Assembly (NCBI GenBank): GCA_025450955.1
Contig: JANWLJ010000243.1
Coordinates: 1 to 24,211 of the forward strand
Length of the DNA stretch: 24,211 nucleotides
Reading direction: 5' to 3'
Origin: Polyangium sp.
GTDB taxonomy: Bacteria; Myxococcota_A; Polyangia; Palsa-1104
The position numbers were made by a program, and so were the translations under genes. Shown piece after piece: positions 11,204-14,361 of the stretch (positions are counted from its first letter, which is position 1; each line of letters starts with the position of its first letter). The notes under the pieces were generated by a model. It did not search any database. It saw nothing but the letters and a program-made list of their open reading frames with translations, and was not told where the DNA came from.

Positions 11204-13135
11204 ATGGGGGATCTCCTCGACGCGGCGGTTCCGAGCTTAAATCCGGAGCTCGAAGTGGTTGCCGCGCCGGACGGAACACTGGTCGCGCGGCTCGCGCCGA
11301 ATCGCGCGGCGATGTTCGAAGGACCGGCCGCCAAGCTCCTTCGCCGACTCATCCCGCTCGTCGACGGTGCGAGCTCGGTCGAGAAAATCATAGAGAGGCT
11401 CGGCCCCGGAGTGCCTCCGCGGATCGCGCGCCAGCTTTTGGGACAGCTGGTCGGCACGGTGTTGATCTTCGATGCGGCCGCGCCGGCGCCAGCCGAGCGG
11501 CCGCGCGGAATCGCAGTGCTGTCCAACGGCGCCCTCGGCGAGATTCTCACCCGGCGACTGCGCGAAGCGCAGATCGCGGAGTGCACCGAGATTCGAGTCG
11601 GAGAGCTCGAAGGCCCGAACCGCGCGCCGGCCAGCCCGACGGTCGCGCGCGGCACCCGGCTCACGCTGGCGAACGGGGACGGGCAGCGCCTGACGACGGC
11701 GTGTCGCGGCGAGCTTGCGAGAGAGCACGACTTCGTGGTTTGCGCCCTGGAAGGAGTTCCCCTTCAGTGGATTCTCGAGGTGAACCAGGCGGCCCTCGAA
11801 GCGCCGGAGCGGACCTGGCTGTTCGTGGTCGCCGGACCCTCTGAGATTCTGGTCGGCCCGACGATTGTCGGCGGGCAGCCCCCGTGCTTTTTCTGCACCC
11901 GGCTCGAAGGCTTCGAAAACCAGGCGCTCCTCGCGAGCGTGGTTCCTTCCTTCGGAGCATACACACTCGCGGATCTTCCGCGCGGCAGACTGCTCGCGGA
12001 GCTCGCCGCCGGCGAGGTGCTCAAGGAGGCCGCGGCCTGGTTCGATCCGGTTTGCCGCCCGCGCCTGCGCGGCAGCACCCTCGCCATCGACTCCGAGCAG
12101 ATTAGCGCCCGCCGCCCGGCTCGCTCATCGGCGCATTGTCCCGCCTGCGCGAGCTACCGCGATCGTCCGGCTCCCGTCGGCTTTCGTTGGTCCGAGCCGC
12201 TCGCGCTCGAGCCAGCGGGCGGACGCGACCGCGATCGGTCGCCGCGCTTCTGGTCGCCCGTCACCCGGATTTTTCAAAGTCTCGCCGCCCGCGGCGCCGA
12301 CCAGCAGCCGCATGGAACCGGCACTCTTCGCGAGCACCTGACCGGCACGTGGAGAATCCTGTCGGCCTGGCGTCGCACCGAAAGCTTGCAGCTCGCCGGT
12401 CTGCTGCACAGCGGATACGGCACCGACATCTTCGAGGTGGGCCTGTTTTCCGAGGGCGAGCGCCGCGAGATCGCGCAGCTCATCGGGCCGGCCGCGGAGG
12501 AGTTGGTGATGCTATGTTGCACGGTCGACCGCGCTCACCTCTATTCGTCGCTCGCGTCGCTCGACGCGCTCTCCGCGGGGCTGACAGTGCGCAACTGGAG
12601 GACCGGAGAGCTCATGCGGCTCGATGCTGGCCGGGCGGCGGAGCTGATCACGCTCGAGATCGCCAACCTCGCCGATCAGGTTCACGATGGACGCGGGAGC
12701 CCTGGGGTTTGGATGGCCCAAAGCGCTCGCTGGATGCGACTCATCCGGTCGGTGGATTCGGACCCGCCACCGATCTTCGACGCGGGCCGCGGTGGAATTA
12801 CCGTCGAAGACGAAGCGCGGGCGCGAACCAGCTATCTAAAGGTGATTTCGGACCCGCTCGGCGATCGATGCGCGGCTCGGCGCGAGCTCGAAGAGGTCGT
12901 AGCCCTCAATCCGTGGATCGGCGAGCCGCACATTTTCCTGGGAGAGCTGGCGCTTCGCGACGGCCGCTCTGCCGAGGCGCTGCACCAGGGGCGCGCCGGG
13001 GCGGACTTGCTGGCAGCGTGGGGAACGGCGTGGGACAAGCGGGAGCAATGGAGCGATTGGGTCTTTCGAGCCGCGACGCTGTGCCGCGCGGCCGAGCAGG
13101 CGCTCGCGACGGCCGACCTAGGAGACGGTTCGTGA
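11204..13135 (+). CDS. Fusion of a ThiF/RRE-like leader-binding region, an HD-like (DUF6817-type) domain and a TPR-like tail (643 aa)
   Basis: The N-terminal half parallels the 8347-9516 protein (LIPLVDGASSVEKI; EVNQAAL...VGPTIV; CFFC; CPAC). The middle has GTLREHLTGTWRILSAW...AGLLHSGYGT. The C-terminus has ARRELEEVVALNPWIGEPHIFLGELAL (TPR-like). ATG 11204 is preferred over the TTG at 11165, which is the -35 box. Confidence 0.8.
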   Translation: MGDLLDAAVPSLNPELEVVAAPDGTLVARLAPNRAAMFEGPAAKLLRRLIPLVDGASSVEKIIERLGPGVPPRIARQLLGQLVGTVLIFDAAAPAPAERPRGIAVLSNGALGEILTRRLREAQIAECTEIRVGELEGPNRAPASPTVARGTRLTLANGDGQRLTTACRGELAREHDFVVCALEGVPLQWILEVNQAALEAPERTWLFVVAGPSEILVGPTIVGGQPPCFFCTRLEGFENQALLASVVPSFGAYTLADLPRGRLLAELAAGEVLKEAAAWFDPVCRPRLRGSTLAIDSEQISARRPARSSAHCPACASYRDRPAPVGFRWSEPLALEPAGGRDRDRSPRFWSPVTRIFQSLAARGADQQPHGTGTLREHLTGTWRILSAWRRTESLQLAGLLHSGYGTDIFEVGLFSEGERREIAQLIGPAAEELVMLCCTVDRAHLYSSLASLDALSAGLTVRNWRTGELMRLDAGRAAELITLEIANLADQVHDGRGSPGVWMAQSARWMRLIRSVDSDPPPIFDAGRGGITVEDEARARTSYLKVISDPLGDRCAARRELEEVVALNPWIGEPHIFLGELALRDGRSAEALHQGRAGADLLAAWGTAWDKREQWSDWVFRAATLCRAAEQALATADLGDGS

Positions 13136-14361
13136 CGGCGCAGACGGCAGCGACGGCCGCCGCATCCTCCCTAATCTGGCCGCTCTCGCTAGAGGTATTT
13201 TTGGCGGAGTATTGGGCCAAACGCTGCTTCGCCTCCCACGAGCCTGCCGAGCGCCTGCCGGCCGACTTGCGCGAGCTTTGCCAGCTCCAGCTCCCGCAGC
13301 TGCTGGCGCTGGCCGAGGGCCCGGTGCTGGTCATGTACGCGACGCGCGCCGGGGCGTACCGGAGCTCGGAGGTCGCGCCGGCACAGGCGCTCGGATTTTA
13401 TCAGGCGGGAATGACCCTCTACTTCCATCTCGACAAGCGGCGTCCCGAAATTCACCGTTGGCTGCAGGCGCTCGCGGCCGATCTCCGCCAGCCCGTCGAT
13501 GCCCTCCGCTTCAGCGTCTTCGCTACGGATCGCGGCGGCATCACTCAGTGTCACTTCGACATCAATCACAACTTCACCCTCCAGGTTCGCGGCCGCAAGC
13601 GCTGGAAGATCGCCGAAAACCATTTCGCGATTCGTCCGCTTGAGCGCTTCACCGTCTCGGACCGCGTTCCGGAGATCCTGCGGCTGCACACCGTCGAGGA
13701 GCCGCCGCGCTGTCTGCCGCCGGACGCGCAATCGATCGAGCTATTTCCCGGCTCGATGGTCTACGTTCCGCGCGGTGATTGGCACGAGGTGGAGGCGCTC
13801 GAGGAGTCGCTGTCGTTCAATTTATCCTTCTCGCCGGTGACCTGGTTATCGCTCGTGCTCCCGGCAATTCGTCACTGCCTCGCCGCGCATGAGGAGTGGC
13901 GAGAAGAGGCGACCGGAGCTTGGGGTGGCCTCGCCGAGCGTGCCGAAGCTCGTCGGAGATTGGCCGCGTTGATCGCGCGCCTGCCCCAGGATCTGACGAG
14001 CTTGGCGGCGGAAGATCTCCTGCCGGCCTCTCGACATGCGGTCGATCGCGGTCCCTTCGAAGGCGATGCCCGGTTTCGCCGCAATCAGATGGCCACCTTC
14101 GGGATCGAACGTACCAAGGGCTCGGCGGAGCCGCACACCGTGGTGGTGATCACGGTTCCGGGAGGCCCCTCCGCCGGGCTTCGTCTCTCGCCGCCTGCGC
14201 TCGCGGCCTGCCGCGTGATCTTGCAAAAGACAGGTCCATTTTCAATTGGCGAGCTCGCGGCGACGGTGCCCAGCTTGGAGCCGGCGGCGCTCAGCCAACT
14301 CCTCGCCCAGTTGGTCGAGATTGGCTTCGTCCAACGCATCGAGGCCGATCGCCCCGGCTGA
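13132..14361 (+). CDS. JmjC/cupin-4 (YcfD/ROX-like) Fe(II)/2-oxoglutarate oxygenase (409 aa)
   Basis: FLAEYWAKR start motif, HxD (CHFD), LQVRGRKRWK and distal His (PRGDWHEV), with a C-terminal winged-helix-like tail. AGGAG RBS; GTG 13132 overlaps the upstream stop. Confidence 0.9.
   Translation: MTAQTAATAAASSLIWPLSLEVFLAEYWAKRCFASHEPAERLPADLRELCQLQLPQLLALAEGPVLVMYATRAGAYRSSEVAPAQALGFYQAGMTLYFHLDKRRPEIHRWLQALAADLRQPVDALRFSVFATDRGGITQCHFDINHNFTLQVRGRKRWKIAENHFAIRPLERFTVSDRVPEILRLHTVEEPPRCLPPDAQSIELFPGSMVYVPRGDWHEVEALEESLSFNLSFSPVTWLSLVLPAIRHCLAAHEEWREEATGAWGGLAERAEARRRLAALIARLPQDLTSLAAEDLLPASRHAVDRGPFEGDARFRRNQMATFGIERTKGSAEPHTVVVITVPGGPSAGLRLSPPALAACRVILQKTGPFSIGELAATVPSLEPAALSQLLAQLVEIGFVQRIEADRPG

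Follow-up and report, generated by a model that had tools for sequence, protein, structure and literature searches.

A JmjC oxygenase gene coupled to a SmaX-type fusion gene as a candidate Asp-to-aminomalonate tailoring cassette in a Polyangium azole/thioamide peptide cluster

We analysed a 24,211-nucleotide stretch of Polyangium sp. DNA (contig JANWLJ010000243.1; hereafter the window), which holds a gene cluster for a ribosomally synthesised and post-translationally modified peptide (RiPP) with three short precursors. Divergently from this cluster run two coupled genes, encoding a fusion protein (11204–13135, + strand, 643 aa) and a YxbC-like JmjC Fe(II)/2-oxoglutarate (2OG) oxygenase (13132–14361, + strand, 409 aa, GTG start). 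Sequence features and analogy with a characterised enzyme pair lead us, by a modest balance of probability, to propose that the JmjC protein and the fusion convert a precursor Asp to β-hydroxy-Asp and then to aminomalonate. In that pair, the Fe/2OG enzyme SmaO forms β-hydroxy-Asp on a RiPP (graspetide) precursor, and SmaX, an HD-fold DUF6817 enzyme with a single iron, depends on seven residues and cuts the Cβ–Cγ bond to yield aminomalonate, a product that loses CO2 to give Gly under high-energy ionisation (Kim et al., JACS 2025; PMC12186529). Because the DUF6817 domain of the fusion keeps all seven residues required by SmaX, we read the fusion as a downstream catalyst, probably the second enzyme of the pair and not merely a carrier. 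An earlier sequence-only reading had tentatively given the fusion the role of delivering substrate to the JmjC enzyme; this part is not supported, since the fusion resembles a downstream catalyst and the JmjC protein has a winged-helix domain of its own, similar to a RiPP recognition element (RRE).

The JmjC gene, its coupling and its active site

The 409-aa product on record for the contig matched the open reading frame at 13132–14361 (+), and the assignment draws on Pfam, phmmer, an AlphaFold2 (AF2) model and a fold search. In Pfam, the protein matched JmjC_2 (E 1.9e-11; 44.1 bits, cut-off 22) and Cupin_8 (E 1.4e-9, above its cut-off), with the JmjC domain spanning residues 127–238. The HxD...H triad, described as intact in the sequence-only reading, proved to be so: the metal-binding His141, Asp143 and His218 were invariant among 86 relatives, as was Lys156. 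Thr138 and Asn147 are present alongside Lys156 and, by FIH numbering, are presumably 2OG ligands. By its β-helix, its HxD...H triad and its 2OG residues, the product is assigned as a JmjC Fe(II)/2OG oxygenase.

The translational coupling claimed earlier was likewise confirmed in the sequence. A ribosome-binding site and a start/stop overlap join the gene to the fusion (13120–13135, +): AGGAG at 13120–13124 lies 7 nt 5' of the JmjC GTG, which overlaps the TGA of the fusion by 4 bp in the GTGA at 13132–13135. The GC content at third codon positions of the JmjC gene was 0.78, and its GC and codon bias were like those of the remaining cluster genes.

The AF2 model (pLDDT 93) comprised a JmjC core (residues ~10–235), a helical domain (238–296) and a C-terminal winged-helix/RRE-like domain (314–403), whose modelled topology of strands followed by three helices is PqqD-like. 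Compared with the RRE domains of the cluster itself, the C-terminal domain gave a modest match (hhalign probability 52.7, E 1.4e-4, 43 columns). No Pfam PqqD match was found for it among 42 members, and ribosomal oxygenases (ROX) carry a winged helix at the same place. From the model, this domain probably binds the leader, which we infer rather than observe because the RRE resemblance is modest and ROX enzymes share the winged helix there. A complex prediction for the JmjC protein, precursor 1 and Fe scored 0.15 against a mark of 0.32 and was counted neither for nor against.

Family placement of the JmjC protein

The nearest solved structure by sequence was Bacillus subtilis YxbC (1VRB/7ZCC; phmmer E 1.7e-40), with Rhodothermus YcfD at E 7.5e-7. 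YxbC was also nearest by structure (Foldseek rank 1; VIA top match, Z 24.4, rmsd 2.6, 282 aligned), so that by both measures YxbC, and not YcfD, NO66 or FIH, is the closest counterpart of the protein. In BLAST, YxbC aligned over 320 residues (E 2e-42) and Escherichia coli YcfD over 114 residues (27% identity, E 5e-6). In the phylogenies, which are quick trees, a tree uniting the protein with the YcfD of E. coli and Rheinheimera was rejected (p-AU 0.0019), and position 156 is Lys here versus Arg in YcfD. The subfamily is patchy, occurring in 25 of 401 genomes of the phylum at E <= 1e-25, and the top relatives are just 35–39% identical; these relatives came from a profile-free HMMER search, while the homologue search returned only the query for the JmjC protein and for the whole fusion.

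Relatives with readable surroundings were found beside RiPP genes. One (P0005) adjoins YcaO and SagB, a second (P0009) adjoins an NHLP precursor, and both belong to the eight-member clade of the window protein (SH-aLRT 96–97); a third (P0007) lies near a lantibiotic dehydratase. The remaining contigs were short or uninformative, and a neighbour of P0003 that appeared LanB-like by eye, with neither a Pfam nor an NCBIfam match, was not counted as RiPP context. On sequence grounds, the protein is predicted to be a peptide-type hydroxylase of a YxbC-like clade whose relatives with readable context sit in RiPP clusters. The sequence-only reading of a candidate JmjC/ROX-type peptide hydroxylase therefore stands, as the protein does not cluster with YcfD and its relatives are linked to RiPP loci. 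Several YxbC-like JmjC proteins, including P0033 and P0094, carry a fused SCP2 sterol-carrier domain; in P0108 the fusion partner is a PhyH dioxygenase.

The fusion protein carries a SmaX-type domain

The fusion joins a putative leader-binding module, RRE and E1/ThiF-like, to a SmaX-type DUF6817 domain, probably of HD fold, and tetratricopeptide repeats (TPR). The N-terminal module occupies residues 1 to ~330, with CxxC at 228 and 312; it matched TIGR03882 at E 3.4e-6, below the cut-off, and the ThiF protein of the cluster in BLAST at E 6e-6. The C-terminal half consists of the DUF6817 domain (PF20680; 12281–12532, +, E 2.8e-22) and the TPR. By residue type and spacing, all seven SmaX-type residues are present: His370, His378, His402, Thr407, Arg443, Asn488 and Gln492, corresponding to SmaX H31, H39, H63, T68, R104, N143 and Q147. 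Their spacing (8, 24, 5, 36, 45, 4) is the same as in SmaX except for one loop (45 vs 39). An Atlas search with the fusion gave no usable match.

Our survey of DUF6817 covered 24 domains, drawn from three phyla as well as from plasmids and metagenomes, with flanks of 1.5–6 kb. All seven residues occurred in 5 of the 24, and each of the five touches a 2OG oxygenase: the window fusion, with its JmjC neighbour; its nearest relative (P0153, 43% identical), which overlaps a TauD gene in a nonribosomal peptide synthetase cluster; two actinobacterial proteins (L336 and L337) in which DUF6817 is fused to an Asp/Asn β-hydroxylase (PF05118); and a gene on a Burkholderia plasmid (L339), immediately preceded by a JmjC gene (profile E 4e-40). 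For 18 of the DUF6817 domains no 2OG oxygenase could be recognised nearby, and none of these had the full set. A sixth oxygenase-linked case (P0137), located beside LanB, is a natural fusion of DUF6817 and JmjC. In the DUF6817 tree, the base was weakly resolved and the oxygenase-linked copies did not form one clade.

Several surveyed loci have features of their own. The two actinobacterial genes (L336, 94–1833; L337, 1447–3132) unite SmaX-type DUF6817-TPR and Asp/Asn β-hydroxylase in single proteins, and no RiPP genes were found around them within the 1.5 kb flanks. On the Burkholderia plasmid (L339; NZ_CP013426.1, 5024–6828), the JmjC and DUF6817 pair is preceded by transketolase- and asparagine-synthase-like genes, and a gene for a kinase/cyclase fusion of the thiazole/oxazole-modified microcin (TOMM) type lies close by. 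A further DUF6817-TPR subfamily (L329–L331), in which the metal-binding Asn is replaced by Asp, has a MetQ-like gene in front of it; L331 also has an intervening acireductone dioxygenase gene, which may link this copy to methionine salvage.

The candidate target site in the precursors

The three precursor genes, read from sequence on the - strand, lie at 10729–10899 (precursor 1, 56 aa), 10551–10727 (precursor 2, 58 aa) and 10360–10533 (precursor 3, 57 aa). The sole residue other than Cys, Ser or Thr in the conserved stretch before the Val is Asp in the first two (candidate target codons 10762–10764 and 10590–10592) and Asn in the third (codon 10402–10404). The candidate Asp sits between two Cys, and the aromatic tail residues vary among the three precursors.

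Related precursors were sought by a pattern scan that left the variable position free. The same family was found in six related clusters, in Rheinheimera, four actinobacteria and one metagenome contig (L189), and in the four of these clusters that lie on long contigs the core genes are in the same order as in the window. The variable site was Asp and Asn in Rheinheimera, Asp, Asp and Glu in L189, and Gly (7) or Ser (4) in 11 actinobacterial precursors. The earlier statement that this residue is Asp or Asn thus applies to the three window precursors and fails across the family (Asp, Asn, Glu, Gly, Ser). A loose Cys-rich pattern run over 60 relatives gave hits that were largely due to chance or repeats, about as many as in the reversed control.

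Neither a YxbC-like JmjC nor a DUF6817 gene was found in the five related genomes (Rheinheimera and the four actinobacteria), DUF6817 being sought by a Pfam search that recovered it in the window's own genome; a DUF6817 profile search of the same genomes, run without a positive control, was also empty. The one weak JmjC match was the Rheinheimera YcfD, on a separate contig. These genomes are metagenome assemblies in which the clusters lie on long contigs with no JmjC or DUF6817 gene on either side. Because the JmjC and fusion genes are absent from all five, even from Rheinheimera with its Asp and Asn, they are best described, from genome comparison, as an optional tailoring cassette. The four genomes without Asp or Asn at the variable site also yielded neither gene, and this absence from the Gly/Ser clusters fits an Asp target. 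Where the window has the JmjC cassette, the divergent slot of L189 (1–1600) is occupied by an incomplete, TIGR03975-like gene for a RiPP B12 radical SAM C-methyltransferase, which suggests that the slot serves exchangeable tailoring genes. ApyD methylates Tyr, according to its own paper; no target is claimed for the L189 gene.

Proposed two-step modification

We regard Asp/Asn as the likely target residue of the JmjC protein. The sequence-only reading had singled out the same site as a conserved one, and only part of that argument survives: Asp/Asn is not conserved, and precursors with Asp or Asn occur without a JmjC gene. Asp is nonetheless the most likely target, on stronger ground than conservation, because the coupled fusion has a SmaX-type domain and the known substrate of such a domain is β-hydroxy-Asp.

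In the first step, the JmjC protein would use Fe(II), O2 and 2OG to β-hydroxylate the Cys-flanked Asp (+15.995), probably gripping the leader by its winged-helix domain. The fusion, tethered through its RRE-E1 module, would then cleave the hydroxy-Asp to aminomalonate (net -14.016). The +15.995 shift earlier expected as the end point would accordingly be an intermediate state; with both enzymes, the predicted net shift is -14 Da, and -58 Da if CO2 is then lost. The precursor with Asn may stop at hydroxylation or stay untouched. The proposal combines the genes, coupling, metal and cosubstrate ligands, family placement, seven SmaX residues and optional distribution observed here with chemistry taken from SmaO and SmaX, and its substrate, site, leader binding and step order are our suggestions.

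We also entertain, tentatively and as a clear minority prospect, that the cassette performs a leader-guided Asp-to-Gly edit, in which the whole side chain is removed post-translationally and Asp serves as a temporary handle. If the next Cys were cyclised on the Asp carbonyl, the aminomalonate carboxylate would lie beta to a thiazol(in)e C=N, from which, by chemical reasoning, CO2 should be lost easily. Gly, the predicted end product, is encoded directly at the variable site in 7 of the 11 actinobacterial precursors, the other four having Ser.

Several observations weigh against the Asp-to-aminomalonate pathway. The SmaX residues were mapped by type and spacing as published, not by aligning the SmaX sequence. 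In the model of the C-terminal half, the non-TPR fold matches were HD proteins (PhnZ, Z 9.5, rmsd 3.4, 124 aligned; Rel, Z 9.3; SAH, Z 9.3), but they sit in a TPR-dominated list with Z-scores in the range of common helical arrangements. The P0137 fusion retains just two of the seven SmaX residues. The split of five versus 18 in the survey stems from three or four independent lineages with short flanks, and because of these few lineages and short flanks the association seen in the sequences is taken as a supporting pattern, not as a statistic. The DUF6817 name proves nothing in itself, as many such genes occur alone. Rheinheimera has Asp and Asn precursors and the whole core cluster with neither cassette gene, and there is no positive co-variation of Asp with the cassette, which one cluster alone carries. 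The family of the oxygenase does not fix its target either, as CzlI (Phe), BipG (Orn) and MppG (Trp) act on other residues. SmaO itself needs a following Gly and refuses Asn (PMC12186529), whereas here Cys flanks the site and one precursor has Asn.

Alternative explanations

The JmjC protein may hydroxylate another precursor position, such as the conserved Val, a tail Trp or Phe, or a site made after ring formation, with the HD domain cleaving beside the hydroxyl or at the C-terminal carboxylate. The targets of the YxbC-like CzlI and of BipG speak for this, as does MppG, which acts on the Trp Cβ only after macrocyclisation; moreover, close JmjC relatives lie in RiPP clusters without DUF6817 in the available flanking DNA, so the clade is not tied to aminomalonate. 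We nevertheless consider it unlikely, since the tail aromatics differ among the three precursors, Val is kept at its position in most related precursors, whose clusters lack the cassette, and seven-residue SmaX-type domains are fused to Asp/Asn β-hydroxylases.

Asp and/or Asn could instead be β-hydroxylated with a product other than aminomalonate, the hydroxy residue being final, as in the sequence-only reading, or being turned into a carboxy-substituted oxazol(in)e through cyclisation of its hydroxyl by one of the azoline YcaO enzymes; the fusion would then act as leader carrier or elsewhere. CinX, CanE and YhhC leave β-hydroxy-Asp in RiPPs, the two azoline-type YcaO enzymes of the cluster would suit the oxazol(in)e variant, and the Asn precursor is poorly suited to SmaX-type chemistry, which requires an α-hydroxy acid. 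We hold this outcome to be quite improbable, given that none of the seven SmaX catalytic and substrate residues is missing from the HD domain of the fusion, and that in the survey the complete set occurred only beside 2OG oxygenases; clusters that lack the cassette have both azoline YcaO genes as well, which means that the second is not specific to the cassette.

There is a slim chance that the cassette is an orphan or recently acquired insertion that acts not on the three precursors but on another precursor or a protein encoded in the unassembled part of the genome. The cassette points away from the core cluster and is missing from related clusters, transposase-like and cas1-like remnants lie downstream of it, and the genome is 52% complete, with a partial second YcaO-SagB-YcaO cluster on contig C285. 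Set against this, the N-terminal module of the fusion resembles the cluster's own RRE-ThiF, the fusion and precursor 1 share an intergenic region that puts their starts ~300 bp apart, L189 uses the same divergent slot for its RiPP B12 radical SAM gene, and the GC content and codon bias of the cassette match the cluster.

That the JmjC protein is a housekeeping YcfD/RoxA arginine hydroxylase of ribosomal protein L16 lying here by chance, as its ROX-like three-domain layout and the automatic JGI label '50S ribosomal protein L16 3-hydroxylase' on some relatives might suggest, is largely refuted and highly improbable in view of the 114-residue BLAST alignment, the rejected YcfD clade, the patchy distribution and Lys156.

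The core cluster, its surroundings and the host genome

Behind the precursors, the core genes follow in the order ThiF, YcaO, SagB, YcaO, PqqD-M50 protease, permease, YcaO and TfuA, all on the - strand. An RRE-ThiF/E1 (Ocin-ThiF-like) cyclodehydratase partner (8347–9516; domain searches) is followed by an azoline-forming YcaO of the SagD family (7060–8343; TIGR03604 above cut-off), a SagB-type dehydrogenase (6174–7046; TIGR03605 above cut-off), a second azoline-type YcaO (4871–6181; TIGR03604 above cut-off), a PqqD(RRE)-M50 protease (3600–4874; domain searches), an ABC-2-type permease (2932–3603), which is conserved in related clusters and gave weak Pfam matches just under the cut-offs, a thioamide-type YcaO (1665–2915; domain searches) and TfuA with a C-terminal extension (244–1668; PF07812, E 1e-48). 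Between the precursors and ThiF lies a gene for a CIA30/CBM11-like protein (9534–10217, -, start uncertain), which has a signal-like N-terminus and whose relative closes the Rheinheimera cluster. The divergent intergenic region (10900–11203) contains, on weak evidence, two sigma70-like sites on opposite strands (2 found vs 0.2 ± 0.4 in shuffles).

The window lacks an ABC ATPase-sized gene that separates the M50 protease gene from the permease gene in related clusters (e.g. L292, 11461–12138), and within 2932–4874 the M50 protease and permease genes overlap directly. A gene for a membrane-anchored thioredoxin-like protein (HWCxxC), found just upstream of the precursors in actinobacterial clusters (L294, 19253–19873; L296, 18703–19311; L300, 3244–3879), is also absent from the window. 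Downstream of the JmjC gene, broken mobile and CRISPR remnants were identified by eye at 14940–16201 (-): an IS66-like transposase tail (~14940–15130), a cas1-like piece (~15500–15830) and a transposase-like piece (15833–16201). The host assembly has 68.7% GC. On its contig C285 (L054, 1219–5379), the second partial cluster encodes YcaO, SagB, YcaO and an ABC ATPase that are 43–51% identical to the window genes; it is cut by the contig end with an insertion sequence element behind it, and no precursor was seen there.

Comparison with known systems

Like SmaO and SmaX, the cassette places an Fe/2OG oxygenase beside a DUF6817 domain, putatively of the single-iron HD-fold type, in a RiPP cluster, with RiPP enzymes (YcaO, SagB, TfuA) in the divergent operon and, judged here from sequence, the seven residues kept. 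A core Asp is present in two of the three precursors, the third having Asn. The Asp-Gly recognition motif of SmaO is absent; clusters with YhhC- or CinX-type oxygenases also lack it (PMC12186529), so the motif defines SmaO, not the cascade. Fe/2OG-SmaX pairs have already been predicted in azol(in)e and thioamitide clusters (PMC12186529), and the window locus may itself be among the pairs listed there. Unlike SmaX, the window domain has an RRE-E1 leader-binding module fused on its N-terminal side and TPR on its C-terminal side, and unlike SmaO, the oxygenase is a YxbC-like JmjC protein with a winged helix. The main text of that paper names SmaO, YhhC, CinX and TauD as oxygenase types (PMC12186529) and describes neither a JmjC partner nor a SmaX domain on a TOMM-type leader-binding module nor a Cys-flanked target.

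The JmjC protein shares ~29–31% identity and the same metal triad and Lys with YxbC (1VRB, 7ZCC), which in contrast has 330 aa and no C-terminal winged helix. The structure title of YxbC, 'putative asparaginyl hydroxylase', is an annotation only, and our literature search found no publication giving YxbC a substrate. The protein also resembles CzlI of curacozole biosynthesis, a non-essential, YxbC-like Fe/2OG tailoring hydroxylase in a polyazole cluster for which YxbC is likewise the closest structural match; BipG of biphenomycin biosynthesis, a JmjC RiPP-tailoring hydroxylase; and MppG of a Moorena lanthipeptide, a leader-dependent hydroxylase domain with an RRE. Unlike the window protein, these three act on Phe, Orn and Trp, and the accessible portions of the sources report no HD-oxygenase partner with them. 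YcfD/RoxA, NO66 and MINA53 share the order of JmjC, helical and C-terminal winged-helix domains, but structural identity to them is 17–23%, and the protein is set apart by a separate clade, a patchy distribution and RiPP neighbourhoods. The literature search found nothing joining TfuA, YcaO and JmjC in a RiPP, nor any aminomalonate decarboxylation with a thiazole or YcaO. The two-step chemistry is known; the present arrangement of it on a ring-forming peptide pathway is not described.

Significance

A single graspetide precursor is so far the only substrate on which the conversion of Asp to aminomalonate has been demonstrated, and the authors of that work left the extent of the cascade open (PMC12186529). 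The window is a compact system for testing it in a pathway that combines azole and thioamide chemistry, with two coupled genes, three short precursors and a built-in comparison of Asp with Asn; relatives that naturally encode Gly or Ser there add a further comparison. If hydroxylation alone occurs, the locus would add one more RiPP hydroxylase of a familiar type. Otherwise it could give the YxbC-like JmjC clade a substrate, could show whether a JmjC enzyme feeds a SmaX-type domain, and could yield a tool, directed by the leader, with which Asp side chains are shortened or removed.

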